Origin: a virus
DNA length: 64,000 nt
Reading direction: 5' to 3' (one strand)
Virus record (IMG/VR): IMGVR_UViG_3300033149_003526
Span: 2,852-66,851 of that record
The position numbers and the translations under genes are program-made. The notes below the pieces were generated by a model, which saw nothing but the letters and a program-made list of their open reading frames with translations, ran no database searches and had not been told where the DNA came from. This document shows, in pieces, positions 15,058 to 36,447 of the stretch (the first letter of the stretch is position 1; each line of letters begins with the position of its first letter).

Positions 15058-16155
15058 TTATGCTCCAAAATGAATAAAATTAAGTACATTATAATTAATT
15101 CTAGGATGCATTTGTAAAGAAGGTCTATACCCATATGTATTAGGAGTTAAAATTATCTCAGATTCCCATGTACTTATATCTTTTTTATATCGTCTACTAT
15201 ATACTTTATAATCGTCTCTTTTAGTATATATTACAATAATATTATCATAAGCATCGCAACCTAAACTAAGCATACCATGCATTAAAAAGTCTGACGAACT
15301 ACTTATAGATAATATTTCAGTACTATTTTTAAATACTTTAAAATAGTATGTAGAATCTGAATAATCGTAAAAATATACTGACCAATATACGTTACCATTA
15401 GAATCTACCACTAAACTTTTTGATAACCATTGATCGTTTATATCTGAAGATAACAGCATGTCTACTATAACAGTTTTAGATGACGCATCTATAGGACATT
15501 TTATAATTTTTACTCTACATTCATTAAAAAACGTAGAATAATAATATATTAAACCTATATATATATATCCTGAAGCATCTATATCAGCTCCTAATAAATA
15601 CGCATAAGGTGTAAAACTTAATGAGTGTATTAGATGATGATATGTGGTATCAAAATTATTTCCTTTGTCACTTGAATATTTTATATTCACCCATACACCG
15701 TTATATGTACCTTGATTAGGTATGTATCTGCTATCAAATGAAAAATAAATGTTATATAATGTATTAGAAGAAGATCTATTACTTAAAACTATTGATTGTC
15801 CTCTATTTCTTGAATAACTAATATCGTGTTCTAGTATAAATTCCCATGATCCTCCGTTTAATTTTCTATATACTTTTGCATTATAATTATTACCAGAAAC
15901 ATACACATTAAATCCTAAAAATATATCGTTATCTGGAGATCTTGATAAACTTACATACGCAGGACTATTCAAACTTTGTATTGTGTAATCCAACTGCCAA
16001 CCATTACCTTCATTTTTATATATTTCTATATCATTACTATCGTTGATAAAACATGTATATAAATGTCCGTTATTAAGCTGAATTATTCTATTTTGACCAA
16101 ATCCATATGCAGATTCTCCTATAATCTTAGCATCAGTATCTATTAATATACTCAT
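15058..16155 (-). CDS. Beta-propeller tail / receptor-binding-like protein
   Basis: Blade-like repeats (DASGYIYI, DSNGNVYW, DAYDNIIV) and an Asp-box-like YSSDKG. Confidence 0.5.
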   Translation of the reverse strand: MSILIDTDAKIIGESAYGFGQNRIIQLNNGHLYTCFINDSNDIEIYKNEGNGWQLDYTIQSLNSPAYVSLSRSPDNDIFLGFNVYVSGNNYNAKVYRKLNGGSWEFILEHDISYSRNRGQSIVLSNRSSSNTLYNIYFSFDSRYIPNQGTYNGVWVNIKYSSDKGNNFDTTYHHLIHSLSFTPYAYLLGADIDASGYIYIGLIYYYSTFFNECRVKIIKCPIDASSKTVIVDMLLSSDINDQWLSKSLVVDSNGNVYWSVYFYDYSDSTYYFKVFKNSTEILSISSSSDFLMHGMLSLGCDAYDNIIVIYTKRDDYKVYSRRYKKDISTWESEIILTPNTYGYRPSLQMHPRINYNVLNFIHFGA

Positions 16156-16636: not shown

Positions 16637-17017
16637 TTATAAACTTTTAACAAATTCTATAGTAAAATGACTCCATCTATTATTTTCTTCTGATGGTCTA
16701 ATACTAACCACTGAACAATTATCTAGTGTTAAAGTATTTTCTATTTTTAATGTTCCTTTTTTATTTGCTATATTATTTATTAGATTTATTAAATATTGCT
16801 CTATCTCTAACCTACTATTAGCTATTTTAAATGCTCCCACTGTAATTCTAATTAAACCACCTCCCATTTCATCTCCCGAATATATTTGAACCCCTCTAGC
16901 TCTAGGTATTATTCTAGTCATTACGTTTCCTTCAAAAGTAGGATTCATCCAAGCCATTTGTCCTAAATCATATTCATTACTATCTACTATAAATTTTATT
17001 CTAGGTGCATAAGACAT
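16637..17017 (-). CDS. Probable distal tail protein
   Basis: Small beta-rich gene directly after the tape measure. Confidence 0.5.
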   Translation of the reverse strand: MSYAPRIKFIVDSNEYDLGQMAWMNPTFEGNVMTRIIPRARGVQIYSGDEMGGGLIRITVGAFKIANSRLEIEQYLINLINNIANKKGTLKIENTLTLDNCSVVSIRPSEENNRWSHFTIEFVKSL

Positions 17018-19317
17018 TAAAATTTCCTCCTATTTCTAGTAGATTCTAACATATTATGTAATCGTTTAACTGATTCATTTAAATTTAAATATTCTTCTTG
17101 CATTGTTTTTAAATATTTTTCTAAATTTACCCCTAATTCTTTTAAAGAAACTATAGTATTACTACCATAAATTCTTATATTTTCGTTAGTTTTAGCTGCT
17201 ACTCTTACAGCTTCTTTTGCATTAGTTACCACAGCATCCCCAATTATATATATTGAATCGTAATATTTTGATAAACTTTTAGCTATCTCATCTGCTGTAA
17301 ATAATTTTTTACCTTTTTCTATCTTCCCACCTGTAGCTAATTGTTCTTGTAATTGCTTTACTGTTTCTGCCACTACACTAGAAATATTTACTAATGATTC
17401 CATTTCTTGTAACCTTCTTTGCTCTATTTTTTGTCTTAATTTTTCTAATGTCTCATAATACTTTTTTTCTCCATGTAAAAATTTCATAAAACCTGGATGC
17501 TCAGTCCAAAATTTATATTTAAATTCAGGAGCTGTATATCTTTTATATGCTTCCCAAGGCATCCATTTATAAGTAGTTTTTAAAATTTCTGGTGTTACTG
17601 CCTCCTTAAATCCTTTACCAAACAGCCTACCTGCTTCTATACCTGCTATTTTAAATAATTTCCATATTCCATTAATTACTGTGCTTAAATCTGATAATAA
17701 TTTTTCCCATCTAATTTTTAATTCTATTTCAAATTCTCTTTTAGCATATTTTTCTGGATTTCTCAAAAGTTCAAATATGTTTTTAATATCTTCTGATATT
17801 CTTTCTCCATATTTTTTCATTATATTTTGTATTTCTGGTTTCATTAAAAATTGAGTTATAGGAGTAATTACATATTTAGTCAAAGCATCAGCTATAGGCG
17901 CCCATAATGTTTCTAAACCTAAAGCTCCTATTACTGTTTTTAGTTTAGTTAATGAAGTTCTAAATACTTCAACTTTACCTGGTGCTGTATCTAATATTTT
18001 AGAAACCATTCTATTAAATTTAGACATAGCAGTTTCCAAATCACCAAAAATACCTACCATTTTATCAACTTGTAAAGATAAAGTTTGTACTCCTTGTGAT
18101 TGCCTTATAGAAAACATTTCTTCTAGTATTCTTTGAAATTCTAAAGCTCCTATTTTATCTTTTAATTTAGCAAATTCTGCTATAACTTCATTTAATGGTC
18201 TAAATTTACCTCCTGCTTGGGTAAATAAAGTGTATAATGAATCTACTGCATCACCATAAGAGTTAAATTGATCTTTTAAAGCAGATATTTTTTCTGCTAA
18301 TTTATCTGCTTCTTCTGCTCTATTTTCTAATCGTAATTTATTTTCTTCTGCTACTAACTTATTAATAGTACGTTCTAAATTTAACATTTTATCTCCTAAA
18401 GTTTTCATTCTTTCTGCATAAGTTCTAGCTTTACCATCTGCTTTATATAGCTCTATTCCATACATTTTCATTAACCTAGCTGCCCTACCAGAAGGAGCCA
18501 TCATTCTAATTAATGCAGTTCTTAACCATCTAGCAATATGAGTAGATTCAGCTCCTGCTGCAGTACCAGCCATTACTGCTGCTGTAAATGATTTAACTGA
18601 ATCTATACCAGTACCATAAGTATTAACTATAACAGGTGCTAAATATTTAGATGCTTGTACTAATCCTCTAATAGTACCCACTGCATCAGTAGAACCTACT
18701 ACTAATATTGCTACTAATTTTCTAAAATCTTCAGCAGGCACTTTAAAAGCTGTAGCTAATCTAACCAAATCTAAAGCTAATTCTTTTGCATCTTCTCCAG
18801 TAACTAATTGAGCATCTGATAATGCTTGTAACATTTTTTCATATTGATTTAAATTAATACCTGCTTTAGATAAAGATACTGCTATATTTGCGATAGAATT
18901 AGATGTTAACGCTACATTTTTAGAAGCATCTAATGATATTCTTTTCATTTTTGATAAAGTATCTGAAAAAGTAAATCCTCCTTTAGTCATAATAGCAGAA
19001 GCTCTGGCAAAATTTAAAAATTGCTGTTGGGTATCTTTCATATAATTTTTTATAGAACGATTTATATCTCTAAATATATTAATTAATCCATAAGCTGCTG
19101 TTCTTAAAATCGCTGATCTTAATGTTCTAGCCATATCTCTAACAAACCTAGTAACACTTTTAGTCATTGAGCTAAATAAAAATGATACAGTAGTAGCTAC
19201 TGGTCTAAGTCCTTTAGCTATTGTTCCTAATCCTTGTAAAGCTGAATTTATATTTTTAAGCTTATTATAAACGTCATTATAATTTACCAGATTAAGCACT
19301 AATTTAATATCAGCCAT
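17017..19317 (-). CDS. Tail tape measure protein (TP901-like)
   Basis: Ala-rich helical protein, SKYLAPV / LRTALIRMMAPS / GKFRPLNEV motifs; follows two chaperone-sized genes. Confidence 0.88.
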   Translation of the reverse strand: MADIKLVLNLVNYNDVYNKLKNINSALQGLGTIAKGLRPVATTVSFLFSSMTKSVTRFVRDMARTLRSAILRTAAYGLINIFRDINRSIKNYMKDTQQQFLNFARASAIMTKGGFTFSDTLSKMKRISLDASKNVALTSNSIANIAVSLSKAGINLNQYEKMLQALSDAQLVTGEDAKELALDLVRLATAFKVPAEDFRKLVAILVVGSTDAVGTIRGLVQASKYLAPVIVNTYGTGIDSVKSFTAAVMAGTAAGAESTHIARWLRTALIRMMAPSGRAARLMKMYGIELYKADGKARTYAERMKTLGDKMLNLERTINKLVAEENKLRLENRAEEADKLAEKISALKDQFNSYGDAVDSLYTLFTQAGGKFRPLNEVIAEFAKLKDKIGALEFQRILEEMFSIRQSQGVQTLSLQVDKMVGIFGDLETAMSKFNRMVSKILDTAPGKVEVFRTSLTKLKTVIGALGLETLWAPIADALTKYVITPITQFLMKPEIQNIMKKYGERISEDIKNIFELLRNPEKYAKREFEIELKIRWEKLLSDLSTVINGIWKLFKIAGIEAGRLFGKGFKEAVTPEILKTTYKWMPWEAYKRYTAPEFKYKFWTEHPGFMKFLHGEKKYYETLEKLRQKIEQRRLQEMESLVNISSVVAETVKQLQEQLATGGKIEKGKKLFTADEIAKSLSKYYDSIYIIGDAVVTNAKEAVRVAAKTNENIRIYGSNTIVSLKELGVNLEKYLKTMQEEYLNLNESVKRLHNMLESTRNRRKF

Positions 19318-22749: not shown

Positions 22750-23763
22750 CTATAATTGAAAACTATTTTTAAAATACGTAAAAAAATGATTTTTTTCAAA
22801 TTTTAATATATGATTAATTTCAGGTAAATTGTCTAATTTTATATCACGCTCATTAGAAATTGCATACATATTTCGAATTGTGCTTATATTATCAAATAAA
22901 TACTTAACAATTAAAGAACGGCTATCATAAGAAATATGTAAAGTATTAGCCCCAAAATATAAAGATGGAATTGTACCATGTACTCTAAAAGAAATTACAT
23001 TTTTAGCTTTAGAATAAAATTCTAATAAATTTTTTGGATTATTTATACAAATTACATTATCTAATAAAGATTTAAAAACATTATAATCGTGAATATCATG
23101 ACATAAACATAATAAATTTTTAAATTTATTTTTAGCTATTTTATACAATACATTGACTATAAATTTGTTATGAGTATTTAAATCTTTAAGTACTAATATA
23201 TTAAATTCTTTAAAATTTTCATTTATTTTATAATATAATGGGGAAAAGTATACAGAATCTGCTAATTGAATAGAATTTATTTGCAAATTTTCTAATACTT
23301 TTTGAGTTAATAAATCTCTTGTAATAATTAAATCGTAAATTTTAAAATTATTTAAAATAAAATTTTTATGATTATTAATTATTAATCCAACTGATTTTTT
23401 TAAATCTCTATCTACTAATTGGTCTACAAACCCTACCCATAAATTAAAAATTTTAATTCCTTTAGATTTAGCTTTAAATAAAACATCATAAAAACTTTGA
23501 TTGAATCTATTAGGAATATAATCAGTAGTTAGCTGAGGAGTGCCACATAATACTATAACATCTGCTTCTTCTAACATTCTATTCCAGGTAATTTTATCAT
23601 TTAAATTAAATAAATTTACATAATTAAATATAGCAAATCTATTATTTATTTTATATTCAGCTTCGTATAGTAAATACTCTATTCCTTTTCCTATTAAAAT
23701 ATCACCTGGATTAGGATTTTCATAATGAGTATCTGTAAGTAAAAAATATTTTACTACTTGCAT
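22750..23763 (-). CDS. Polysaccharide pyruvyl transferase family protein
   Basis: NPGD, ITRD, DSV, SFRVHG, ISYD motifs. Confidence 0.8.
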   Translation of the reverse strand: MQVVKYFLLTDTHYENPNPGDILIGKGIEYLLYEAEYKINNRFAIFNYVNLFNLNDKITWNRMLEEADVIVLCGTPQLTTDYIPNRFNQSFYDVLFKAKSKGIKIFNLWVGFVDQLVDRDLKKSVGLIINNHKNFILNNFKIYDLIITRDLLTQKVLENLQINSIQLADSVYFSPLYYKINENFKEFNILVLKDLNTHNKFIVNVLYKIAKNKFKNLLCLCHDIHDYNVFKSLLDNVICINNPKNLLEFYSKAKNVISFRVHGTIPSLYFGANTLHISYDSRSLIVKYLFDNISTIRNMYAISNERDIKLDNLPEINHILKFEKNHFFTYFKNSFQL

Positions 23764-25091
23764 ATTTCTAATAATTTTTTAATTATCATCTCTGGAAATA
23801 TTTTATACAAACAAAACCCTTCTAATTGATATTTTACACAATGTCTATTTTTAGGTTCTACTCTCTGAGTATCCCAACAAGGAGAACAAGGAACTGGTGC
23901 TTGGATAGGGTAACAATTTTTATAGGTACTACATCTCCATTCTGCTGGTATAGGACCAAATAAAGCAATAGTTTTAGTATCAAATGCACCTGCTACATGT
24001 AATACCCCAGTATCTACTGTAATTAAATAATCCAACTTCCAAACAATAGCAAATAATTGTCTTAAATTAGTTTTACCTCTTAAATCTAAATAACTACCAA
24101 TAAAAGATGAATATGGTTCTTTATTATTTCCGATTAGTACTGGAGTAAACTTTAATTTATTTAATTCAACGATTAATCTTTGAACATGTTGTCTAAAATA
24201 CGATCTATTAGTGCCTACTGCACTCCAACAAATGCCTACTGAATTATTACAATTTTTTAAAGTATCTATTGCATATTGTTTTTCTTTTTCATCTAATATG
24301 ATAATAGGTTTATCTATTAATAGCTCATTGGGTTGTAAATTACATAAATATGCAGTAGAATAAATTCTATGTTGCTGATTAAATGTTAAATTATAAGCAC
24401 TTAGTCTATAACTTAATGTAATATAATTGTATTTATAAATAGGAATTTCGTTTCTATTAGTATATATTTTGTCAATAAAATCTAAATTTTTAAAAATATC
24501 TACCTTTGATTGATCTACTAAATACGCTACTTTATATCCTTTTTTATATAATGTATAAGCACTAGGTAAACTCATTAAAATATCTCCTAAACCATCATAA
24601 GTTTCTATTAAAATATCAGGTTTAGAATTACTCTTTATAAACTCTTTTAGCAATTTTAAATTACTATCTTTATTAATAATTGGTATTTTAAAACCAGTAT
24701 ACTTACTAAATAAATTAGCATATTTCTCTGCATCTTTAGTATTATTATGAAATACTCCATTAAAAATAAGAGGATTTTTAAATATTGTATGGATGAACCA
24801 TTCAAATCCAGTTTCTACATATACTATTTTATCACTTATTACATAATTTTCTGGTAATATATCACATACATATATAACCCCTATATTATGTCTAATTAAT
24901 TGTTTAATAAATTTTTTATCTATATTTTTATTATAATGGTGAAAACAAAAACCTACTACTAAACTTCTTATGTTTAAAGGAGGGAAAATTACAGTTCCTA
25001 AACTAAGTTTTAATTTTCTTTTATTAGAAACTTTATAGTAAATTTTAATAGGATTTAAATTTTCTAATGGATTAATATTTAAATAAATCAC
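23754..25091 (-). CDS. Glycosyltransferase family 9 (heptosyltransferase-like)
   Basis: GLGDILM, DLRGKTNL, ITVDTGVLHVAGA...TIALFGP, CSPC; GTG start after GAGGAGG. Confidence 0.88.
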   Translation of the reverse strand: MIYLNINPLENLNPIKIYYKVSNKRKLKLSLGTVIFPPLNIRSLVVGFCFHHYNKNIDKKFIKQLIRHNIGVIYVCDILPENYVISDKIVYVETGFEWFIHTIFKNPLIFNGVFHNNTKDAEKYANLFSKYTGFKIPIINKDSNLKLLKEFIKSNSKPDILIETYDGLGDILMSLPSAYTLYKKGYKVAYLVDQSKVDIFKNLDFIDKIYTNRNEIPIYKYNYITLSYRLSAYNLTFNQQHRIYSTAYLCNLQPNELLIDKPIIILDEKEKQYAIDTLKNCNNSVGICWSAVGTNRSYFRQHVQRLIVELNKLKFTPVLIGNNKEPYSSFIGSYLDLRGKTNLRQLFAIVWKLDYLITVDTGVLHVAGAFDTKTIALFGPIPAEWRCSTYKNCYPIQAPVPCSPCWDTQRVEPKNRHCVKYQLEGFCLYKIFPEMIIKKLLEICK

Positions 25092-25186: not shown

Positions 25187-26164
25187 TTATGATCCAAGAT
25201 GAATTTTAACTAAACCTTCAACTTTATCATTAGTATTCTTGTACACAGGTTTAAAATCTATTTCCTCTGCAAGTATTATTCTCTTGCTAAATTTCTCTTC
25301 AATATCTTTTTCTCTTACAAAGATGTCTTTTCTTACACCGAGTATAAACGCATCTTTTCTTACCAAAATAGCAACCTCACCACTTTCAGTACCATCTAAA
25401 TAAGAAGTCTCAAAAACTTTAATTCCCATTACTGGAGGCAAAGTTCCTGTTTTAAGCAAATCAGTATCAGGTCTAAAATCTGCTCTATAAAGCTTTTCAT
25501 TTTTTCTTAATCTATTCCCAAATGTTAAAGAACAAATTAACACTAAATCATTAGTATTTCTACCATAAACTCCTAATGCTTTTCTAGCATCAGCTATTTT
25601 AGCTACTATATCATCAGATGCGCTATAAGTAACTGGCGAAGTAGCACAAGAACTACTAGAAGCAATAGTATAAATTCCATCAAATATAGTATTATATCCA
25701 GAACCAGCACCAGCACTACCTAATAACATAGCTTTCTCTTCTGCCTCAGCTAACTTTTTAGTCAATGCTTGTCTAATTGCCTTAGCTAAATCAATTCCTG
25801 CTGTTTCCAAATCATCTTCAATTATATCTACAAATGCTACTAACAACTGTGGGGTAAGAACTATAGGCTTAGAAGTATCTATTGTAGTTTCATTTAATGT
25901 ACCAGGAGCTATTTCAGTCCCATAAGAAACTTTGTAAACATTCAAATCTGTACCGTAAAGTACAGAAGGAATAGTTAAATTTCTAGCATTTTTAGGTACA
26001 TTAATTTTAGGGAATATTTTTCTCAAAATATTAGATTCAGTAATTTCCTCTATTACTTTTTTAGAAACTGGTTTAGGTAGTATGTTACTACCAGTATTAT
26101 CAGGTATCTGACCTAAATCATCAGCTTTAATTAAATCTAATAATTTTTTAACTTTTTTCTCCAT
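25187..26164 (-). CDS. Major capsid protein (HK97 fold)
   Basis: G..LP..VS..VIE, IIEDD, LAEAEEKAMLLG, FDGI, GIKVFETS motifs; follows the protease. Confidence 0.9.
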   Translation of the reverse strand: MEKKVKKLLDLIKADDLGQIPDNTGSNILPKPVSKKVIEEITESNILRKIFPKINVPKNARNLTIPSVLYGTDLNVYKVSYGTEIAPGTLNETTIDTSKPIVLTPQLLVAFVDIIEDDLETAGIDLAKAIRQALTKKLAEAEEKAMLLGSAGAGSGYNTIFDGIYTIASSSSCATSPVTYSASDDIVAKIADARKALGVYGRNTNDLVLICSLTFGNRLRKNEKLYRADFRPDTDLLKTGTLPPVMGIKVFETSYLDGTESGEVAILVRKDAFILGVRKDIFVREKDIEEKFSKRIILAEEIDFKPVYKNTNDKVEGLVKIHLGS

Positions 26165-26178: not shown

Positions 26179-26577
26179 TTATTTATTTGTTAAATATTTA
26201 TAAAATAATTCATCGGGATCTTCTTCTTTATTATTCTCTTCTTCTTTATCTTCATTTTTAATCAAAGATTTCTTATTGTCTACTACTGTAATTGTTTTAA
26301 CTTTTTCTTTTACTAATTTTGTTAACTCTTCTAACATATTTTTTATATCTTTAATTTCTGCTTTAATTTCCTCTATACTTTCTCTCATTTTCTTACCATA
26401 GTAATAGTAGTAATAATATTCATATTCTTCTTTATCTTCTTCTTTTTTTTCTTTATCAGTCATTTCCTCTTTAACTTCTTCTTTCTTTTCTTCTTCTTTA
26501 TTAACTTCATCTTCTAATAAATCTTTAATTTCTTTTTCAGATAATTCTTCTTGTTTTTTAATATCTTTCTTTTCCAC
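26179..26577 (-). CDS. Probable nested in-frame scaffold protein
   Basis: AGGAGGTG followed 5 nt later by an in-frame GTG at 26577, at the protease/coiled-coil boundary. Confidence 0.6.
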   Translation of the reverse strand: MEKKDIKKQEELSEKEIKDLLEDEVNKEEEKKEEVKEEMTDKEKKEEDKEEYEYYYYYYYGKKMRESIEEIKAEIKDIKNMLEELTKLVKEKVKTITVVDNKKSLIKNEDKEEENNKEEDPDELFYKYLTNK

Positions 26578-27171
26578 AATTTCACCTCCTTTTTCTTCTT
26601 CATTTTGTTTTATACATTTATATAAAGCCTTACTAAATGATTCCAATACTTGAGCTTGTGCATTAGCTGGTATACCTACAAAACTAACTTCATATAGTTC
26701 CATTTCTTTTATAACTAATACAAATTTTAAATTAGGTCGTTCTTTTTTAATATTTTCTGATAAATATCCATTTTTAATTGCTTCGTCTATAGGGATCTCT
26801 ACTGCATCAACTAATTTTCCTCCTATAGAAAACTTTGATATTATACCTTCTTGTATTTTTACTCTTAAATCTTTAGCTAACTGACTAACATATATTTTTA
26901 CTAGCAAACCTTTATCATCTACAGTAGCATCTATAACTTTACCTACAGCGTTATCTAAATCATATTGATGATTATAAAAGACAGTACTATTAATAGTTTT
27001 TAATTTATCAGCAGCTTTTTCTAATGCTTCTTTTAAGATAATATCTCCTTGTCTATCTAAATCCGTTGTAGCTGCATATCCAACTACATAAAAACCTTTA
27101 TCGCTTGGTTTTCCTTTTTGTTTAACTATAGGAACATCAAAACGAAATATTTTTTCAAATTTATATTGCAT
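26179..27171 (-). CDS. Prohead protease (HK97/U35-like) with C-terminal scaffold region
   Basis: GYA...DRQGD, YNH, FSIGG, LYEVSFVGIPAN; E/K-rich C-terminus. Confidence 0.9.
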   Translation of the reverse strand: MQYKFEKIFRFDVPIVKQKGKPSDKGFYVVGYAATTDLDRQGDIILKEALEKAADKLKTINSTVFYNHQYDLDNAVGKVIDATVDDKGLLVKIYVSQLAKDLRVKIQEGIISKFSIGGKLVDAVEIPIDEAIKNGYLSENIKKERPNLKFVLVIKEMELYEVSFVGIPANAQAQVLESFSKALYKCIKQNEEEKGGEIVEKKDIKKQEELSEKEIKDLLEDEVNKEEEKKEEVKEEMTDKEKKEEDKEEYEYYYYYYYGKKMRESIEEIKAEIKDIKNMLEELTKLVKEKVKTITVVDNKKSLIKNEDKEEENNKEEDPDELFYKYLTNK

Positions 27172-27226: not shown

Positions 27227-30200
27227 TTAAAATTTAAAATTAATAGCATATAATAATTTATATATATATTCAACATCAATTAAAAATTGCTTATCTCTTT
27301 TATTTTTTTCTTCATAAACTTCTTGATTTTTAGGTTTATAAAATAACCATATTCTTTTACCATTTATAGGAGCATACATAAATATATACCAACCATCAAA
27401 TAATTTACCTTTAAATTTAAATAATTTAAAATGTTTACCATGAGGAGAAGTTTGTCTACCTGCATACCAAGTACCTTTTTCATGTACCCAAAAAGAAGCA
27501 TAATTATTAGAAGTTGAACCTATAGAATCTGGAGGCACTATTAAAGGTTTACCGTCTCCTACAGTTAACCAACTTGCAGGTCCTCTTACTACTGGTTCTT
27601 TAGGTGTCTTATCCCCAATTTCTGAAACATGTGGAGTTTTTAACATAAATTGTAGATGAATATGTTCATTTACTTTTAATAACCTATTTTCTTTAAATTG
27701 ATTACCAGGAGTAGTCCAATGACCACCTTCAAAATAATCAGCTCCTTCTGGTACTAGTCTTAGATCTTGGTGTATACTAACTGGATCTAACAAAGCAATT
27801 AATTTTCTCATATTATCAGGTAAAGATTTATAATCTATATTTTTAAGTAATTTATTAATTAATTTAGTTAAATTTTTACTAGATTTGTTAGGGCTTTTAG
27901 CTTCACTTATAGCTTTTTTCCATTCTGTAATTGTAATATCTTTATATAAATTATGAATTGCTTTTATTTCATCATTAGTTGGTATAAAATATTCTCTATC
28001 TAATCCATATTTTTTTATGTCAGATAAAGTTAACTCATCGATAAAAATAGGTCTAATTCCTCTAGTATGACATTGGACACAATACTTACCTACCATACCT
28101 TCTTCTATAGTCCATTGACCAGTAATATTTTCTTTATCTGATAAAATATAAAAATCATAAAAAGTTTTAGTTTTAGAAACACTTAATTTATCTACTATTA
28201 AATAACTATCAGGTTCTTTTTTATCTGGTTTTAATGTTAATACTCTAGCTTGAAATAAAGTATATTTTATTTTTCCATCTACTATTTCTTTTTTATATTC
28301 TGCTGCTGCTATATTTAATATTTGTCCTACATTTGCTTCTATCTTTGTATTAAAAGTTTTGCCTAAAACTCCATAATATTTTCCATTTAATTCTTTTACA
28401 GGAGTAAACTTATCTTTTTTATCTTGCGGTATTCCATAACCTACTATATAATTATAATTACCTGCTCTATTTTTAATTTTTTCTAGCACTATGGTATCTA
28501 ACTCTAATGCATATTTTAATTTACACCACGTCAATGTATTCCCATCTAATTCATAAGTCCCAGAATAGTATTTTAACATAAAACCATCTATTCCGTGCAA
28601 TCTTCCTAATTTTAATTTATCTACATTATTTTCATAGTATTTAAATAATTTTTCTAACTGTTCTTTAGTTTTTATATCGTAACTAGAAACTAATATAAAA
28701 TGCTTTTTAAATTTTTTAGCTACTTCGTTTAGTATTTTAATTCTTTCAGATAAAGGAAGGTTATGTAAATCTTTTCCATTATAATATAAAATATCAAATA
28801 CAAATATTCTTACATTTTCATCAGATCCAGGATCTTTAGCTTGAGACCATCTCATTAAATCGTGTCTAGATAACCATACTTTTTTATTTGGAGATAATTC
28901 CATTAATTCTGAATCAAATATAATTCCATTTTCATTTAAATCCGATAATTCTTTAACTACATTTGGAAATTTCTCAGCTACATTCTTTTTACTATCTTCA
29001 AAATATATTAGAGTCTTTCCATTTTTATCTTGACTTAATACACATCGCCAACCGTCTATTTTTAAATCTGCTCTAATTTTACCTTCTGTTTCAACCCCAT
29101 ATTTTCCAAAATATTGCCATGCATCATCTACATTAAAATACTCTATATCATGATAAGCAGAACCTGTAGCTTTCAATGGAGGAAATACTTGTAATGGTTT
29201 CAACTTTTTATCCTTTTTCTCTATTTTATCTATAGTTAACTTAGTATTACATTTAGGACATCTATTTATAAATGAATTAGATATTATTTTGTATCCACAA
29301 TTATCACATGCAAATAAAACATCATTTAAACATAATATAAATTTACCATCATAATACTTAGAACTAGCTGGTCTAATTATAACTATATCGTACCGATTTT
29401 TTAGTTGTTTTAAAAAACCAAATAATTTATCTTTTTTAACTACCCATCTAAGTGGTACTAATTTAGGTTTATCTAGTTTATCTAACCATTTTTTTCCCAT
29501 AAAAAATATTCTATTTATCAATATTTCACTTAAAAAACTATCTTTTTTATAAGCTAATAAATCAGTTATAATTTCTTTATTGTTTTTAGTTATAATTTTT
29601 TCATATATAACTCTATTTTCTTTATCTACAACTAAATAAAAATCCCCATTTATATATGGTTCTACTATAAATTTTTTACTATTCATATTTAAGTTTTTAT
29701 TAATTTTACATATTGAATATTTTCTGTTATAATCAGGAACTGCAATAGTTTTTATTATAGGAACTTTTTTCTTTTTTAAAATTAAATCATAAACACTCAA
29801 TATTTCGCCATGACTAGCTACATTACCTATAAAATGAGGATTATATTTTTCTAAGTATTTTCTAAGTATTTTTTCTAATTCTCTTGGTGCTACAATATCT
29901 ACATCATTAGGATCAGGTTTATATAACACTGAACCAACAAATTTAACTATATCACTTTTTATAGTTATTTCATCTTCTAATTCATTCCATATTTCATATA
30001 CTTTAATTTCTTTCCCTAAAATTCTGTAAGTAAGTTTATCTAAATCATTAACTAAATTATGATTTAATCCTCTTTTCAACATTTCTTTTACTACCAAAAC
30101 ATGTACTTTTAAAATTTTATCTTTAGTTATAGCTTTAGTTTCTATAGATTTATTTCTTAAATCTTTTCTACTTAATAATCCCCATAACTGATGACATCTT

Positions 30201-31099
30201 AAATGTAAACTAACTAACTCTTTGTTTGATATGTTATGTAAAATAGATGGATCATTTAAAATTTCATCAAATCCTGGTTTTAATATTAACTCATCTTTTC
30301 TATAAATGATATAATATTTATTTAAATCTATATCAAATTTCTCTCCTTCTCTTGCTGTTCTAACTACTTTTGTTTTACAATCTTTATGTTCTTTTTTATA
30401 TTCTTTTAATTTTTCTTCTAATATATTATCTGCTTCGCATAATGGTGGATATTGATTACCCATACCTGTAAATAATAGATATTTATTATTTAATGAGACC
30501 AAATAATCAAAATGTTTTAAAACTGCTATATGATTGTTTAAAGGTATTTGATGATTCCAATATGCTCCATCTATAATTGCTAAAATATTATTAGAAAAAT
30601 ATTTTATATTATATTCATCAAATATAGGACCCATATCAGGTGCATACAAAAATACATCTTCAAAATTAAAAGCTATAGTAGGAAATCTTTTATCATGGAA
30701 TACTTTTAATACTCTTATACTTAATCCACCTATATTGTAAGTTTTATTTGATTTAATTTCTTGAAAATTAAATCCTATCCAATTTTTTATATTCCATCTT
30801 TCTTTTATCCTATTAAATACTTGTTTTAATAGATATACAGTAACTATCTTATTATTTTTTTCTAAAAATTGATTAAGTTTATACATACCACCAATAGCAT
30901 CATCGTGTCCATGAGTTATTAGTATAAAATCAAGAGATAATAATTCCTCTTCTAATGTTTTTTCTAAAATATCATCCCCTACATCTACCATTAAAGTAGT
31001 ATTAGCATGTTTAATTAAAATAGAAGGATGGTATTTACCTAGATATTTCTTAGTAGGTTTACTAGTTTCTGCTTTTGTTCCTAATACTTTTATAATCAT
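27227..31099 (-). CDS. Multidomain protein: MBL-fold hydrolase + minimal nucleotidyltransferase + Zn ribbon + ATP-dependent DNA ligase + LigD-type phosphoesterase
   Basis: THGHDD; VGS-x7-DVDI; CDNC/CPKC; ligase motifs KIDG, FDSEL, FDIL, DGFMLK, WCKLK; PE-like VQCH...HQDLRL...KGKLFDGWY..WLFYK. Confidence 0.82.
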   Translation of the reverse strand: MIIKVLGTKAETSKPTKKYLGKYHPSILIKHANTTLMVDVGDDILEKTLEEELLSLDFILITHGHDDAIGGMYKLNQFLEKNNKIVTVYLLKQVFNRIKERWNIKNWIGFNFQEIKSNKTYNIGGLSIRVLKVFHDKRFPTIAFNFEDVFLYAPDMGPIFDEYNIKYFSNNILAIIDGAYWNHQIPLNNHIAVLKHFDYLVSLNNKYLLFTGMGNQYPPLCEADNILEEKLKEYKKEHKDCKTKVVRTAREGEKFDIDLNKYYIIYRKDELILKPGFDEILNDPSILHNISNKELVSLHLRCHQLWGLLSRKDLRNKSIETKAITKDKILKVHVLVVKEMLKRGLNHNLVNDLDKLTYRILGKEIKVYEIWNELEDEITIKSDIVKFVGSVLYKPDPNDVDIVAPRELEKILRKYLEKYNPHFIGNVASHGEILSVYDLILKKKKVPIIKTIAVPDYNRKYSICKINKNLNMNSKKFIVEPYINGDFYLVVDKENRVIYEKIITKNNKEIITDLLAYKKDSFLSEILINRIFFMGKKWLDKLDKPKLVPLRWVVKKDKLFGFLKQLKNRYDIVIIRPASSKYYDGKFILCLNDVLFACDNCGYKIISNSFINRCPKCNTKLTIDKIEKKDKKLKPLQVFPPLKATGSAYHDIEYFNVDDAWQYFGKYGVETEGKIRADLKIDGWRCVLSQDKNGKTLIYFEDSKKNVAEKFPNVVKELSDLNENGIIFDSELMELSPNKKVWLSRHDLMRWSQAKDPGSDENVRIFVFDILYYNGKDLHNLPLSERIKILNEVAKKFKKHFILVSSYDIKTKEQLEKLFKYYENNVDKLKLGRLHGIDGFMLKYYSGTYELDGNTLTWCKLKYALELDTIVLEKIKNRAGNYNYIVGYGIPQDKKDKFTPVKELNGKYYGVLGKTFNTKIEANVGQILNIAAAEYKKEIVDGKIKYTLFQARVLTLKPDKKEPDSYLIVDKLSVSKTKTFYDFYILSDKENITGQWTIEEGMVGKYCVQCHTRGIRPIFIDELTLSDIKKYGLDREYFIPTNDEIKAIHNLYKDITITEWKKAISEAKSPNKSSKNLTKLINKLLKNIDYKSLPDNMRKLIALLDPVSIHQDLRLVPEGADYFEGGHWTTPGNQFKENRLLKVNEHIHLQFMLKTPHVSEIGDKTPKEPVVRGPASWLTVGDGKPLIVPPDSIGSTSNNYASFWVHEKGTWYAGRQTSPHGKHFKLFKFKGKLFDGWYIFMYAPINGKRIWLFYKPKNQEVYEEKNKRDKQFLIDVEYIYKLLYAINFKF

Positions 31100-32928
31100 G
31101 ATATAATTATATTATTAAAATTAGCTCCTATTGCATCTGGCACTGAAATATAATAAATTTTTTTATTGTTTATTTTGACTATATAATATGAATATGAATT
31201 ATTTTCCATATTTTCATTATCTATTAATTTTAATTCAAAATAACCATGCTGATTAGGATAAACTGTTATAGGTTTATTGTAAATTGTAATATTATTTTTA
31301 TATTTAACTGCTTGTTTATTTAAATATACTTGTATAGGTACATTTTGAATATCTTCTATAGTATTATCCAAATCTGTAATCCATCCAGTTACTGTGCATA
31401 TTGTTACTTCTTCTTTATTAGCTCCTGCATAATCATAATCCATAGTAATAGAGTCTAATTCTGGTGTATTTTTACCAGTAGCACTATATAATATTGCTTT
31501 AATACGAATATCAGATGGATTAGTCAATAATTTTGAAATATGTTCATTTAAATCTACTAAAAAATTTGATTGATTGTAACTACCATCTGATTGTACCCAA
31601 TTATTACCATCATAATAATAATCTATTCCATTCACATTTATAATATATTTAATTTCAGTATCAACTGGTTTAGCTGATACTTCAGCTAACAATAATATGT
31701 CGTCTGTTCTAATAGGAGAAGAAGTCATTATAAAAGCTCCATCAGTTATATACCCTTCTCCAATATAATCAATAGTTACATAATTAATCATATTTTGATC
31801 ATTACTATTAGGAAAAATTGCTTTTAATTTAATTGTAGTTAATCCTGATACATCTAATTCATCAATATGCTGAGATATAACATTAAATGAATTTGATTGA
31901 TTATACGATAAATCTGATTGTACCCATTGATTTCCATTCCAATATTTATCATTAATTACATAGTGAACTTCATCAAAATCTGCTGCATAAAAATTAGTTA
32001 AAGATACAATATTTCCAGGATAACCATCATGTACAAAATCAGGAAATTCAACTATACTTTCTTGATAATCAGCTTCTGGTACTGTATATCCTTTTTGATA
32101 ATTACTTGTATGTTGCACTTCACTAAATATTATTAAATCGTCTATATAAAAATTTGCAGACCATGAAGTGTCATCATTATGTAATGCTTTTCCTATTCGT
32201 AATAAATGTATATTACTGTTTCTAACTCCAGTTGCACTAACTACTCCATTTTGCAATATACCATCAATAAATAAATATATATGACCAGCATCTAAATCAA
32301 AATCTAACTCAAATTCATATTCAATCCCAGCAGTAGGATTCCAATTACCCAAATTAGGTTGTGTAATTACATTTCCATTTTGATCTCTAAAAAGCAGATA
32401 TAATGCTCCATTAGTAGAGTGATATATTGAAATCATGTTATTACTATTACCATTAGCATTAGTAATTAAAATAAAAGCTTGAAATTTAGATGGATAACCA
32501 TTGTAATTAGGTGTTAATTTAAATCTAATACATCCTTTTTGAACCATATTTGCATTATCAACTGCGCTATAATCTATATATTTATCAGAATATCCAGTTA
32601 AATCTAATTTACCATTAAATATAGTAGCATTATTACTAGCAATAAAATTTAAATTTCCATTTCCAAAACTTAAATTTTTAGAATTAGTAAAAGTAGCTCC
32701 ACATAAACAATTATTAGGTCTAAGATATTTTTGTTTTATTTTTTCATCTTCAAATTTAATTTTATCAGGATTGTATATAAAACCTGTATCACTATCACAA
32801 TCATTCCTAAATTGTAAATTTAAATGATTTACTTTTAATTTAGCTTTACCATTAATTACTTCTATTTTATCTGATTCAAATATATAATTACTAGAATTTT
32901 CAAATGGAAATGTAGTTTGTAAAGCCAT
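31096..32928 (-). CDS. Virion-associated protein with LamG/concanavalin-like domain
   Basis: G.IRF, LFIDG, LRIG, FYIDDLIIF; internal repeat WVQSD.SYNQSN. Confidence 0.65.
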   Translation of the reverse strand: MALQTTFPFENSSNYIFESDKIEVINGKAKLKVNHLNLQFRNDCDSDTGFIYNPDKIKFEDEKIKQKYLRPNNCLCGATFTNSKNLSFGNGNLNFIASNNATIFNGKLDLTGYSDKYIDYSAVDNANMVQKGCIRFKLTPNYNGYPSKFQAFILITNANGNSNNMISIYHSTNGALYLLFRDQNGNVITQPNLGNWNPTAGIEYEFELDFDLDAGHIYLFIDGILQNGVVSATGVRNSNIHLLRIGKALHNDDTSWSANFYIDDLIIFSEVQHTSNYQKGYTVPEADYQESIVEFPDFVHDGYPGNIVSLTNFYAADFDEVHYVINDKYWNGNQWVQSDLSYNQSNSFNVISQHIDELDVSGLTTIKLKAIFPNSNDQNMINYVTIDYIGEGYITDGAFIMTSSPIRTDDILLLAEVSAKPVDTEIKYIINVNGIDYYYDGNNWVQSDGSYNQSNFLVDLNEHISKLLTNPSDIRIKAILYSATGKNTPELDSITMDYDYAGANKEEVTICTVTGWITDLDNTIEDIQNVPIQVYLNKQAVKYKNNITIYNKPITVYPNQHGYFELKLIDNENMENNSYSYYIVKINNKKIYYISVPDAIGANFNNIIIS

Positions 32929-32943
32929 ATCTAACTCCCTTTT

Positions 32944-33264
32944 TTATAGACTATTTAAATACTCACTAGCTTCTTCTTCTGATACAATACCATCATTAAC
33001 TAATTCTTCTAATGCCATTCTAGTTAAAATTTCTAATTTTTTTTGTTCTATTAATCTTTGTATTTCAAATTTCCTTTGTCTACTATTAATTTCTTCTTTT
33101 TCTATTCGTTTTTCTTGATAATGAGTATTACAAATTGATACTAATTGATAGGCAGTACTACTATCTATTCTATTATAAACACAACCACATTCTTTAGTAA
33201 TTACTACTGGTAAATCGTCTATACTTTCAAATACATATTTACCATCACCAAATACATCTATCAT
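32944..33264 (-). CDS. Hypothetical protein
   Basis: ORF with RBS in the structural operon. Confidence 0.6.
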   Translation of the reverse strand: MIDVFGDGKYVFESIDDLPVVITKECGCVYNRIDSSTAYQLVSICNTHYQEKRIEKEEINSRQRKFEIQRLIEQKKLEILTRMALEELVNDGIVSEEEASEYLNSL

Positions 33265-33265
33265 A

Positions 33266-34753
33266 TTAATCCTCCTTTATAAATGTTTTCGCTATTAATA
33301 AATTAGTATCACTAGTAGCTATTCCTAATAAATAGCTGCTAGCATCGGTAGTCAAATTTCCATCTTTATTTACGAAATAATATTTTCCAGTTTGTAAATT
33401 ATTAAAAACATCAGCATTACCAGACAGCTTTATTTGTAATGAATCATTTTGGTTTGCATCTTGTAATGCTATACCAATCGCATCTACGTTTACTATTCTC
33501 TTACCTGTATGTAATATTATTTTAGCTGACAAATCATCTACACTACATGCTATAAATTTATCTGATTTTAAAAAATTAAAATCAGACCTAGTATAATTAC
33601 TTTCTTTTGGAAACTCTATAAAATCACTATCATAAAATGTATTATTTACACTATCATATCTTATAAATAAAATACCAGTTGAAGCGTTATTTTCTCTTAC
33701 TCTTAACAAAATAGTATCATCAAACAGTAATTCTACAGCTAATAGCTGTTTTAATGATAAATTTTTATTACTAACTAATATATTATCGCTTATTTGAATT
33801 TGATTAGAGTCATCTACTGTTGCTATTTTACAATAAAGTTTATCGTCATATCTAAAAAATAATAATATCTTATTTTTATCATAATACAATGGTTTAAAAG
33901 TTACTTGTAAATCCCCTAACTCATAAGTATTAATAATAGTAATAGTATCATCTTCATCGTTATCAGAAACCACTGAAGCTATATAAAATTTCATTACTAA
34001 ATTATTTTTATCATATAGCCATAATAAATATCTATCGTTTAGTTTTTTATTTAGAGTAATAAATCTACTATTATCATAAAGGGTTACAGAATCATCAATT
34101 ACTACTTTAGGTTTTACATTTCCATTAATATCAACTTTTACTAAAGTGGGTTTTTGATTGTTAGAAGCGTCACAAAAATATATATATGCTTGACCAGGTT
34201 TAAAATAATTAGCATGCATTTTCCAAGTATTTCCAGGATTATATGTGTATGTATTAATGTTTAAATTATCTGTACTATAATCTACTACTACATATTTTCC
34301 ATATAAAGATTCTGAATATGCTCTAAAATGAATAATAAATTTATTAGTATCTAATAATGTTGGATGATAATTTTCTGCAGGACTATTATGAAATGAATAA
34401 AAATTACTAGAAATAAAAATATTATTATTTCGAATATAAACATTTCTAATAATCCCTCTCTTATCACCAATGCTGTCTATTTTTTTTCTATATATAAGTA
34501 ATGCTCTATCGCTATTAACTGGCACTATATAAATTGGCATCGTTTTATATACAAAAAAATCAGCTACTTTACAATCAAAAAATTCAATTTTATTTATATT
34601 TGGATGTATTCCTTTATATACTACTCCATCTATAATAGTTACTACATCTCCTTTTTGAATATTTTCATTTGCTACTCCTTCTACTGTAATATCTGCAATA
34701 GTATTTCCACTAATTGCATCTAATTTATGGGTAAAAGGATTAAATATAAACAC
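33266..34753 (-). CDS. Probable capsid decoration / fibre protein
   Basis: A.ENI.KGDVV at the N-terminus and IGIA...L.TGKYYF...G.LT...LGIA at the C-terminus flank propeller-like repeats. Confidence 0.5.
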   Translation of the reverse strand: MFIFNPFTHKLDAISGNTIADITVEGVANENIQKGDVVTIIDGVVYKGIHPNINKIEFFDCKVADFFVYKTMPIYIVPVNSDRALLIYRKKIDSIGDKRGIIRNVYIRNNNIFISSNFYSFHNSPAENYHPTLLDTNKFIIHFRAYSESLYGKYVVVDYSTDNLNINTYTYNPGNTWKMHANYFKPGQAYIYFCDASNNQKPTLVKVDINGNVKPKVVIDDSVTLYDNSRFITLNKKLNDRYLLWLYDKNNLVMKFYIASVVSDNDEDDTITIINTYELGDLQVTFKPLYYDKNKILLFFRYDDKLYCKIATVDDSNQIQISDNILVSNKNLSLKQLLAVELLFDDTILLRVRENNASTGILFIRYDSVNNTFYDSDFIEFPKESNYTRSDFNFLKSDKFIACSVDDLSAKIILHTGKRIVNVDAIGIALQDANQNDSLQIKLSGNADVFNNLQTGKYYFVNKDGNLTTDASSYLLGIATSDTNLLIAKTFIKED

Positions 34754-34764
34754 TATTACCTCCT

Positions 34765-36447
34765 TTATTCTATTATTTTATAAAAATCAATATAAACATC
34801 TATATTACTTAAATTATAAGATATAAAAGTAAACGATGTTATATTGTCACTAGTATTTAACCATACTCCTGATAACATCCTACGAGAACAATTATTTAAA
34901 CTTGATCCGCCAGTAACTCTTATTATAGCTTCGCATATAACTGGTCTAATATTTCCACTTTTAGCAAATACATATGCTTTAGAAATTATTTGAACACTAC
35001 TATTCCATCCATTATCACCAATAGGTAATGCATTATTAAATCCTGCCCACCAACCAGCAAAACTATTTACAGATCCACCAGCAGCTCTACTAGACCCGTG
35101 TACCCAACCTGTATTATAATTTGCACTATCACTATCTCCATTAGGTCTTAATCCTATTCCACCATTAGTTCCACTAACATCTAATGTACCTCTTAATAAA
35201 ATTAAATATATGTTATCTTCATCTCCATTAAAACCACTAATAACTAAATCATTAATACTTGTAATGTGTAATGATGTAATTTTGATTAATTTACTAGATA
35301 CATTTGGACTACCAGGAATAAACATATTATTAGCACTATCCCATATAAGTGTATTTCCATCTTGTATTCCACTTAAATCAGTTTTTGGTAAATGATAATA
35401 ATTATTATTTAAACCACCTTGTAAATTAGTTAATTCATTATGATCTGTCACTGCTGCTACTTCTATTATACTTTCAAATGCTGATAAAATTTGTTCAAAA
35501 TGTGCAGCTCCTTCTTTTACTATTACTTTTCCTAATAAAATACATATATTTTTAATTAAATCAGGTAAATCTGAAGGTACATTTTCGTCTACTGCATTAG
35601 ATAATCTTGAATATTGATTTTGTCCCATTACTATATGTAATCCTCCATTAGGATCCATAAAAATATAACGACATGCTTTATAGTTATTACTTAAATTTGC
35701 CAAAGTACCACTACCATCATCATAATACTGATTATCTATTTGAGTTTGCCCTGTTACTTTAGTCCATCCGCCAACTCCATTTCTGTAATATAAAGTAAAT
35801 GTATCTCCTGCATTAGTATCTTTACTTGTAATATTCTTTTTTGTTAATCCTGTATATATTGATCCAGATGTAACATATATTCCTCTAGTACCACTTTCAG
35901 ATATTTTTAATCCATCTGAATATTGTATTTTACCGTTTACATCTATATCTTTCCATAGTGTTTTTTCTTTATAACTTGCTATTTCTTGTCCTGCTGTAAT
36001 TAGATATAAAGTAGTACCATCTCTATAAATAATACCCAAAGGAATAGTAGTATTATGATCAGTCGGAGTATTAGTAGTAGCTTCTACTATTGGATTTCCA
36101 TTATTGTATTTTACTACTATATAATTTAAAGCATTATCAGTCAAATTAACTACTGTTTGATTCCATTCAAAAGATACTACTGGAGCAGTATCACTGTTAC
36201 TAGTTTTAATTAATCCTTTACCTGCTGCTACAGTAACTGATCCATCCCCATTATCAGTAAAATCTCCTCCACTGATTTTTCCCGCTGATTCTAATACATT
36301 TATTAACTCTTGTAATTTATCTATTTCAGGAGAACCTAATTTATCTATATTTACATTAGAAGCATTTATATCAGTAGGAGGTTGTACTGTACTACTATTT
36401 ACTAAATCTGGTTTTTTAGTAAATGGGTTAAATTTAAAAATAAACAC
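34765..36447 (-). CDS. Probable head/tail fibre protein
   Basis: G/S/T-rich beta protein; DHNELTNLQGG..YYHL and DG.TL.WD fibre motifs. Confidence 0.55.
   Translation of the reverse strand: MFIFKFNPFTKKPDLVNSSTVQPPTDINASNVNIDKLGSPEIDKLQELINVLESAGKISGGDFTDNGDGSVTVAAGKGLIKTSNSDTAPVVSFEWNQTVVNLTDNALNYIVVKYNNGNPIVEATTNTPTDHNTTIPLGIIYRDGTTLYLITAGQEIASYKEKTLWKDIDVNGKIQYSDGLKISESGTRGIYVTSGSIYTGLTKKNITSKDTNAGDTFTLYYRNGVGGWTKVTGQTQIDNQYYDDGSGTLANLSNNYKACRYIFMDPNGGLHIVMGQNQYSRLSNAVDENVPSDLPDLIKNICILLGKVIVKEGAAHFEQILSAFESIIEVAAVTDHNELTNLQGGLNNNYYHLPKTDLSGIQDGNTLIWDSANNMFIPGSPNVSSKLIKITSLHITSINDLVISGFNGDEDNIYLILLRGTLDVSGTNGGIGLRPNGDSDSANYNTGWVHGSSRAAGGSVNSFAGWWAGFNNALPIGDNGWNSSVQIISKAYVFAKSGNIRPVICEAIIRVTGGSSLNNCSRRMLSGVWLNTSDNITSFTFISYNLSNIDVYIDFYKIIE

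Follow-up and report, generated by a model that had tools for sequence, protein, structure and literature searches.

In a stretch of viral DNA from IMG/VR, we found a gene for a protein of 1290 amino acids (aa) that joins an intact ATP-dependent DNA ligase to a divergent domain resembling the 3'-phosphoesterase (PE) of LigD and that lies directly upstream of the gene for a prohead protease. The stretch, called the window here, is 64,000 nucleotides (nt) long and corresponds to bases 2852-66851 of the 66,851-bp virus record IMGVR_UViG_3300033149_003526, which has direct terminal repeats. In most relatives of the protein, the PE-like domain and a prohead protease belong to one polypeptide. We interpret the 1290-aa protein as a capsid-targeted polyvalent protein that would act on viral DNA much as LigD does, a reading for which belief and doubt are, in our judgment, evenly balanced. 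On the strength of the protease link, the protein is probably associated with the capsid. That it would then repair the entering genome is a more tentative proposal, which we rate as possible rather than probable.

The open reading frame (ORF) that encodes the protein is real. Between 27227 and 31099 the minus strand is open, and a plus-strand reading was rejected because stops occur all along the frame. The ATG of the ORF overlaps the stop codon of an upstream 610-aa gene (ATGA), an arrangement that indicates translational coupling. At the other end, 55 nt separate its stop codon from the protease gene, which is preceded by a strong Shine-Dalgarno sequence. A scan of the window detected no terminator-like site between these two genes, and a promoter scan was uninformative (104 found versus 109.8 expected). 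The first-pass annotation of this DNA had placed a 1290-aa ORF here, with no strand given, immediately upstream of the prohead protease and in a head module far from the replication genes. Each of these points held: the protease and capsid genes adjoin the ORF, and the replication genes lie mainly at 56-63 kb.

Among the domains of the protein, two identities are firm, that of the ATP-dependent DNA ligase (a nucleotidyltransferase [NTase] domain followed by an OB-fold domain) and that of an N-terminal hydrolase with the metallo-beta-lactamase (MBL) fold. Pfam DNA_ligase_A_M matched residues 672-862 (E = 6e-25; 88.6 bits against a cut-off of 26.2) and reached 92.1 bits in a six-frame search. 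An intact ligase with a KIDG motif near 29060 had been predicted, and the position is exact, with motif I (K680-I-D-G) at 29051-29062 and the K680 codon at 29060-29062. Across 14 sequences, ligase motifs I, III, IIIa, IV, and V are near-invariant (K680, D682, G683, R685, E731, D838, G839, K843, K860, and K862). A profile search of the PDB gave a ligase match, 4eq5 (E = 2e-17). Likewise, an AlphaFold2 (AF2) model of the ligase-plus-PE fragment, with a mean predicted local distance difference test (pLDDT) score of 81.7, matched archaeal ligases and human LIG1 in Foldseek over 350-410 columns spanning the NTase and OB domains (E = 1.3e-18 to 1e-13); among the top 50 matches listed for this fragment, ligases filled the list. 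The Pfam model for the C-terminal ligase domain had no match in the protein. In one relative (P0004; 6392-11293 of locus L003), an intein (PF14890, a precomputed assignment) sits directly after ligase motif I (KxDGxRC), which points to a constrained active site, and an insertion of about 358 aa occupies the same ligase site in locus L004 (3-3311).

The PE-like domain that follows the ligase defines a large family. Scored against 1.84 billion representatives, a profile built from the window and eight viral loci matched 617 clusters (50% identity) at E ≤ 0.001, 348 at E ≤ 1e-10, and 89 at E ≤ 1e-30. Among proteins of near length, the search with the PE profile returned 4 proteins and no LigD. 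In the 86 of 163 stored proteins where the spacing from QxHxxG to HxDxR could be read by regular expression, it was 3 residues in 3 proteins, 16-22 in 21, 27-40 in 30, and 63-95 in 32. A spacing of 3 is LigD-like, the window protein has 95, and intermediates fill the range. Homology to LigD was supported by hhalign, with the first 200 residues of six annotated plasmid ligD genes aligned as the reference. Specifically, 23 short-insert members aligned with the LigD PE domains over 130 columns (Prob 91%, P = 1.1e-6), a result that may be slightly favored by the choice of these members by motif regular expression. The alignment paired QxH, HxDxR, the PG/YG turn, and the final G..L.G.W...W.L.K strands. 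The same 23 members compared with the LigD Pol domain, as a control, gave Prob 0.2% and P = 0.36, and all 108 full-length PE-like domains compared with LigD PE gave Prob 43.6% and P = 2.4e-4. A LigD-type PE whose His motifs are split by a long insert, as first annotated, is borne out by this alignment and by the grading of the spacing across the family. Insert-poor relatives also matched the Pfam LigD_N model (PF13298; cut-off, 31.1 bits) below its threshold, with E = 8.9e-5 in 1 of 48 proteins, 16.6 bits (E = 0.0091; positions 3-104 of 107) in P0130, and 14.4 bits in P0016. The ESM Atlas pointed independently to viral LigD_N clusters (score, 0.88), which we treat as a lead only. We regard residues 992-1264 as a LigD-PE-like domain whose homology to LigD is supported by these alignments and which falls outside the curated Pfam model. 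In BFVD, an 827-aa viral protein of the same architecture (A0A516LT18, listed in UniProt) aligned with the ligase-plus-PE fragment over 720 columns (E = 1.1e-30).

Relatives of the protein connect these enzymes to a prohead protease physically. We counted architectures with our own hidden Markov models, made from Pfam-verified seeds, over the 163 stored proteins, of which 161 have a PE-like domain. Of these 161, 94 also have a fused XkdF prohead protease, which in 93 lies directly C-terminal to the PE-like domain, mostly 3-50 residues away. The other modules were the ligase (86 proteins), a helical-NTase unit (HelNT; 65), the MBL (19), and a ligase-like domain (psLig; just 13). After the PE-XkdF pair, the commonest chains were HelNT-Lig-PE-XkdF and Lig-PE-XkdF (21 each), and the window type, MBL-HelNT-psLig-Lig-PE, occurred 10 times. 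Because some metagenomic members of the family are fragments, these counts are floors. Among 48 of the 150 best PE-family representatives, scanned with Pfam, we counted Peptidase_S78_2 in 31, a ligase in 25, a class-I methyltransferase in 14, a D12 Dam methylase in 7, an MBL in 6, a uracil-DNA glycosylase (UDG) in 5, a 2H phosphoesterase in 2, and GNAT and RNA-ligase domains in 1 each. Distant relatives in viral contigs (27-34% identity; GC content, 36-60%) are single ORFs ending in an XkdF-type protease, with Peptidase_S78_2 matches of E = 2e-26 to 5e-30 in loci L005, L007, and L009. Several relatives are harbored by archaeal-associated sequences. In a contig of a Methanothrix metagenome-assembled genome, found by a search of genome contigs with profile A7, HelNT-Lig-PE-XkdF forms one 1050-aa ORF; the search of genome contigs with profile A1 returned no relative.

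The gene order of relatives points the same way. In 10 of the 12 viral loci, the protease gene is next to the ligase-PE gene, one gene apart from it, or joined to it. Fusion occurs in L005, L007, and L009, and L013 and L010 are near-duplicates whose blastp statistics are identical to those of L005 and L009, respectively. The protease gene adjoins the ligase-PE gene in L003, L004, and L012, follows a split-off PE piece in L002, and is separated from the ligase-PE gene by an AAA+ ATPase gene (13861-15105) in L011. No protease was detected beside the ligase-PE gene in L006 or L008. A portal gene lies zero to three genes upstream in L005, L009, L011, and L012. In two further proteins (P0007 and P0015), the chain includes an AAA+ ATPase (PF00004 plus lid) that either takes the position of the PE domain or stands beside it. 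An ATPase near or in ligase-PE proteins may act as an unfoldase or loader for large cargo.

The most frequent chain in the family, a PE-like domain with XkdF alone (38 of 161), could be taken to mean that, within a clade of prohead proteases, the PE-like domain serves in assembly or as a scaffold and has no catalytic role, and that the whole chain is core material degraded at maturation. Prohead proteases and scaffolds are commonly destroyed in maturation. We nevertheless find this the least credible of the alternatives considered. The metal and phosphate ligands of LigD are kept almost throughout the 108 full-length domains (H1011 in 108; H1110, D1112, and R1114 in 107 each; Q1009 in 101), and such near-total conservation of active-site residues contradicts a scaffold role, as do the intact catalytic motifs of the ligase and the intein at the active site of a relative.

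Prohead proteases reside inside procapsids, and the domain chain is fused to one in most relatives; for these two reasons, we infer that the 1290-aa protein would enter the procapsid. A third reason is that assemblin-like peptidases are read in the same way in the available part of a study of polyvalent proteins (PMC5512222). According to our preferred reading of a capsid-targeted, LigD-like protein, the 1290-aa protein would be made together with the capsid proteins, carried into the procapsid beside the prohead protease, and possibly trimmed. It would act on viral DNA, either while still in the head or, as we think likelier, once the next cell has been infected. The PE domain would clear 3'-phosphate or 3'-ribonucleotide ends, the small NTase would add nucleotides, and the ligase would seal, with the MBL serving as an extra phosphodiesterase. 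A pre-adenylated ligase can seal once without ATP, so a packaged enzyme in this state would fit the repair or closure of an incoming genome. The Dam methylase and UDG companions found in relatives suggest that DNA, not RNA, is the target. The C-terminal helix of the window protein, at the place where relatives carry the fused protease, may serve as a docking tail.

At the N terminus, the MBL-fold hydrolase was identified by Pfam Lactamase_B_2 (residues 49-193; E = 9e-11; 42.2 bits against a cut-off of 27) and by structure, in agreement with the first-pass annotation. An AF2 model of residues 1-650 had a mean pLDDT of 75, and its MBL part was confident. With AF2 domain 1-260 as the query, Foldseek ranked a nucleotide-bound MBL from Brucella first (3md7; E = 1.7e-13), and target template modeling scores were 0.72-0.78 across the top structures. 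Further matches included YhfI (6kns), 6b9v, Apyc1 (7u2s, E = 1.3e-12; 7u2r; 7t28), a PhnP-family diphosphatase, and RNase Z. The window MBL shares its fold and its best structural matches with Apyc1, PhnP, YhfI, and short-form RNase Z, but differs from them in being the N-terminal module of a 1290-aa chain and in its metal motif, which is HGHDDA instead of the complete HxHxDH. Among 17 MBL-bearing relatives in which the motif was located, 14 have HxHxD[A/S] and 3 have HxHxDH; the stand-alone MBL gene of L011 also has Ala or Ser for the last His. Shared in this way, the substitution is a trait of the clade and not a sign of decay.

Three Apyc1 structures among the neighbors of the MBL raise the alternative of anti-signaling counter-defense, in which an Apyc1-like MBL, perhaps with the PE-like domain, would destroy cyclic-nucleotide or oligonucleotide signals and the ligase would be secondary. 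Precomputed Pfam tags give the Apyc1 model, PF23023, for the family, and polyvalent proteins are proposed to bear signal-degrading enzymes in the available portions of two papers (PMC5512222 and PMC7824862). We consider this alternative improbable. PF23023, with a cut-off of 50 bits, reached 12.3 on the MBL and covered profile positions 16-77 of 250 (E = 0.003), and it also gives sub-threshold hits in 13 of 14 control genomes. The last His of the metal motif is replaced, structures of the PhnP family, YhfI, and RNase Z are equally close, and an MBL is present in 19 of the 161 family members versus a ligase in 86. The low PF23023 score also weakens the earlier suggestion that the MBL degrades cyclic nucleotides.

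Four segments predicted between the MBL and the ligase fared unequally. The His-rich helical segment is present, with R301, Q304, E339, and R343 each kept in at least 34 and up to 42 members of a wider set of 42 relatives. Near-invariance of its histidines is confined to 14 close sequences; a histidine metal cluster was considered for this motif and dropped because the histidines are not conserved outside the close family. A lone, weak Pfam match to Pyr_excise (E = 0.0089) hints at a possible glycosylase of the T4 endonuclease V type. For the minimal NTase, the signature is well conserved across the 42 relatives (G389 in 42, S390 in 34, D399 in 41, D401 in 42, and D438 in 37). It fits the minimal motif of the pol-beta superfamily, hG[GS]-x(9-13)-Dh[DE]h together with a further carboxylate, the third, and at the motif level we assign residues 380-445 to the pol-beta type. 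A Pfam scan of the protein had no match in this region, and the relative in L012 gave a weak match to MTPAP-like_central (E = 0.054). The degenerate ligase-like segment is conserved and confidently folded: its pLDDT is about 90, and it contains all 18 close-family invariant columns that fall in residues 1-650. Its homology to ligases is weakly indicated. Against the family's own ligase domain, hhalign brought motifs IIIa and IV into register at P = 0.0064 (controls, 0.16-0.54), and look-alikes in the ESM Atlas, again a lead only, were mostly viral PF01068 clusters (score, 0.89). The zinc ribbon is present at residues 595-622, with weak Pfam matches (E = 0.003-0.4), and is missing from 5 of 14 aligned relatives; a PHROGs scan of the whole protein gave just a weak unknown-function match at this ribbon.

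In some relatives (P0114, L005, L007, and L009), a class-I S-adenosylmethionine methyltransferase sits between the helical domain and the NTase motif and, being inserted there, replaces neither. The presence of this methyltransferase in 14 of 48 relatives, along with 2H phosphoesterases in 2 and an RNA-ligase domain in 1, would suit a kit for mending RNA (tRNA) in the manner of Pnkp/Hen1 or T4 Pnk/Rnl, which heals the 2',3'-cyclic-phosphate ends left by anticodon nucleases, modifies them, and ligates. MBLs of the RNase Z/PhnP type act on RNA or cyclic phosphates, and LigD PE acts on 3' ribonucleotides, both of which fit this reading. Even so, we give RNA repair very little credence. By its scores the ligase is of the DNA type and has an OB domain, a Pfam scan of the 1290-aa protein shows no polynucleotide kinase domain, and modules that plainly target DNA occur in other relatives (7 of 48 have a D12 Dam methylase and 5 of 48 a UDG).

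Several observations weigh against a capsid-targeted, LigD-like protein. The window ORF has no fused processing peptidase; because its protease is a separate gene, the next one, the physical link to the capsid holds for this protein by analogy. The earlier proposal that the protein is packaged is backed by the XkdF fusions and by the portal-to-protease slot in diverse viruses. For the PE-like domain, the Pfam LigD_N model found nothing in the whole genome at E ≤ 10, and sequence-profile searches of the PDB with profile A1 and the PE-domain profile found no PE structure, the PE-profile matches (E = 0.43-1.7) being chance. In the hhalign comparison, the EDHP segment of LigD pairs with a non-conserved stretch, and the PE-like family keeps K1154, W1177, and H1223. 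The second catalytic His and Tyr of LigD, His84 and Tyr88 of EDHP..Y, have no clearly conserved equivalents in the family. The metal motif of the MBL is incomplete, as described above, and AF2 left the NTase region without a resolved fold (pLDDT of 30-49 over residues 363-452). Among 50,697 phage records, tblastn found the PE-like domain in no cultured phage; the sole named record with the domain is ANMV-1, which is metagenome-derived. The XkdF proteases in these records are ordinary, at approximately 210-400 aa.

The remaining points on this side concern replication. The 1290-aa ORF encodes the sole ATP- or NAD-dependent ligase of the 66.9-kb record, and the other members of a lagging-strand set are present in the phage genome (primase-helicase, PolA, 5'-3' exonuclease, and RNase HII). 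A cytoplasmic ligase for ordinary replication and repair, which merely happened to be expressed from a late operon, could seal Okazaki fragments and the nicks of concatemers before packaging, with end-cleaning domains as accessories, and never enter a capsid; the ligase is, in addition, nearest to replicative archaeal and LIG1-type ligases. A sole ligase beside an otherwise complete lagging-strand set gives a replication role some plausibility, and the first-pass annotation had itself raised an ordinary replication ligase as the competing account. We judge this account rather unlikely, since many relatives have the ligase-PE chain joined to a prohead protease, the slot between portal and protease is held over 27-66% identity and 24-60% GC, and the ORF is translationally coupled to structural genes. 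Many phages of about 67 kb also rely on the ligase of their host.

The pairing of ligase and PE in LigD is textbook knowledge. The window protein resembles LigD in having an ATP-dependent ligase, a probable 3'-phosphoesterase, and a putative nucleotide-adding module in one polypeptide, in the alignment of its PE motifs (QxH...HxDxR) and C-terminal strands, and in its ligase domain, which matches plasmid ligD genes by tblastn. In contrast to LigD, its order is NTase-Lig-PE rather than PE-Lig-Pol or Pol-PE-Lig, its putative NTase is of the minimal pol-beta type rather than the archaeo-eukaryotic primase type of the LigD Pol domain, its PE is interrupted by 95 aa and escapes the Pfam LigD_N model, and its gene belongs to a viral head module and has ties to a prohead protease. 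With respect to LigD/Ku nonhomologous end joining, the protein has no primase-type Pol Pfam domain, and the Ku model found nothing in the record at E ≤ 1. The earlier description of the chain as Ku-independent agrees with the lack of an encoded Ku.

A second point of comparison is the class of polyvalent proteins, multidomain proteins with a C-terminal assemblin-like peptidase that are thought to be packaged in the capsid, as described in the available part of Iyer et al. (2017; PMC5512222). The window protein is similarly a large multidomain protein of a portal-terminase phage, is encoded with head genes, and combines several unrelated effector domains; in the accessible text of that source, the class likewise has variable enzyme modules (methylases, NTases, 2H, and GNAT). 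It differs in its ligase-PE-protease core, which is absent from that text. There, ligases are named solely as RNA ligases unassociated with the 2H domains, and no MBL or LigD term appears. Since multidomain polyvalent proteins that are packaged in heads and end in an assemblin-like peptidase have already been published, in the portion of PMC5512222 available, calling the chain the best candidate for a new system, as the first-pass annotation did, overstates its distance from what is known. Head-packaged polyvalent proteins and the ligase-PE pairing of LigD are known already; a ligase-PE(-NTase) chain tied to a prohead protease would be the new element. We found no such chain in the literature, although the supplementary architecture lists of PMC5512222 might hold related proteins. 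Searches for LigD or phosphoesterase with phage capsid, and for XkdF with ligase, gave nothing relevant in the literature, including the parts available of PMC5512222, PMC7824862, and bioRxiv 10.1101/2025.02.15.638363.

A named relative comes from the archaeal-virus metagenomic record ANMV-1 (KP703175.1; coding sequence 3200-5800, "ATP-dependent DNA ligase"). It too combines a ligase and a PE-like domain in one protein and directly follows a portal gene. The ANMV-1 protein differs in being 866 aa long, in having no detected MBL, HelNT, or ligase-like domain, and in being annotated merely as a ligase. The portal gene itself (1913-3193 of this record, our locus L023) is annotated as a "MutT-like phage hydrolase" and scores as a portal with Phage_portal_3 (E = 3.2e-22).

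Capsid-internal proteins such as T4 Alt, the T4 internal proteins, and the P1 Dar proteins are loaded into proheads, processed by the prohead protease, and injected with the DNA to protect or establish it. Prohead loading and delivery with DNA is also the mechanism proposed here for the 1290-aa protein. Among phage proteins known to be delivered from the capsid, some modify or mask the incoming DNA or transcribe it, and others attack host factors; to our knowledge, none is a DNA ligase or an end-repair enzyme, and we found no such enzyme in print. Extended to the family, the proposal would describe a widespread class of virion-carried end-joining machines, in which a LigD analogue tethered to the prohead protease is loaded into the capsids of bacterial and archaeal tailed viruses and injected, and then heals and re-seals DNA after nuclease attack or circularizes the genome. 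We regard this extension as doubtful at present. If it were true, counter-defense would proceed by repair as opposed to inhibition or modification. If the chain is packaged, phages and archaeal viruses would bring their own LigD-like repair crew into the cell. Packaging would also bear on how genomes survive restriction or Cas cleavage at entry, on how linear genomes are closed without a host ligase, and on the origin of LigD-type PE domains. A compact, Ku-independent ligase/PE/NTase chain is a possible reagent. Even if the enzyme were a replication ligase only, the fusion of DNA enzymes to prohead proteases would need explaining.

Coordinates of the 1290-aa protein, its domains, and adjoining genes in the window
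Feature	Residues	Position	Strand	Basis
Upstream 610-aa gene, no family assigned, coupled to the ORF; homologue upstream in L002		31096..32928	-	
Whole ORF (P0001), 1290 aa plus stop, ATG at 31099	1-1290	27227..31099	-	Frame translation
MBL-fold hydrolase, PhnP/YhfI/Apyc1/RNase Z-short structural group, motif HxHxD-A	1-262	30314..31099	-	Pfam, Foldseek, motif
Conserved helical domain	277-362	30014..30271	-	Alignment, AF2
Putative pol-beta-type minimal NTase signature (G389-S390, D399, D401, D438, H422, H430)	380-445	29765..29962	-	Conservation
Lysine-less ligase/capping-enzyme-like domain, EPYING in place of KxDG	455-592	29324..29737	-	
Four-cysteine zinc ribbon, CxxC...CxxC	595-622	29234..29317	-	
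ATP-dependent DNA ligase NTase domain	640-866	28502..29182	-	
OB-fold domain of the ligase	867-985	28145..28501	-	AF2 strands, Foldseek
Divergent LigD-type 3'-phosphoesterase-like domain (Q1009, H1011 ... H1110, D1112, R1114)	992-1264	27308..28126	-	
Helical insert of 95 aa between the two His motifs of the PE-like domain	1015-1109	27773..28057	-	
C-terminal helix, where relatives carry the fused XkdF protease	1265-1290	27230..27307	-	
Prohead serine protease (S78), EK-rich linker, C-terminal helix, directly downstream		26179..27171	-	Pfam Peptidase_S78 E 2.2e-10, phrog_80 E 2.6e-25
HK97-type major capsid protein, next after the protease		25187..26164	-	

The head genes of the window extend to both sides of the ORF. 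Downstream of it, the prohead protease continues past its catalytic domain with a long linker rich in Glu and Lys, a YYYYYGK run, and a C-terminal helix that is conserved, an extension that looks like a fused scaffold or docking tail. Genes for a GT9 heptosyltransferase-like protein and a polysaccharide pyruvyl transferase (22750-25091, minus strand) lie between the major capsid and head-tail connector genes, an order that is kept in L002-L004; sugar enzymes in the head region may glycosylate the virion. The tape-measure gene is at 17017-19317, and the large terminase and portal genes are at 7258-10357, on the strand opposite to the ORF. On its 5' side, four genes of the same operon (31096-36447, minus strand) encode proteins of 610, 106, 495, and 560 aa, with a single assignment among them, phrog_5668 "tail fiber," on the 560-aa protein.

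Elsewhere in the window, which has a GC content of 20-28%, the replication genes are at 51.8-52.5 kb and 56-63 kb and comprise RNase HII, a 5'-3' exonuclease, a primase-helicase, and PolA with a UDG-family domain. They look bacterial (DnaG-DnaB, PolA, RuvB-like, and 5'-3' exonuclease). The family A DNA polymerase (60856-63174, plus strand) has an N-terminal UDG-superfamily domain and a 3'-5' exonuclease domain. An SMC/SbcC-like ATPase gene is followed by one for a calcineurin-like, SbcD-like phosphoesterase with a helix-turn-helix (1259-4173, plus strand). Finally, the early region (46452-51201, plus strand) encodes a radical S-adenosylmethionine protein, a trypsin-like peptidase, and an M42 aminopeptidase (E = 2.3e-50), which are odd cargo for a phage.

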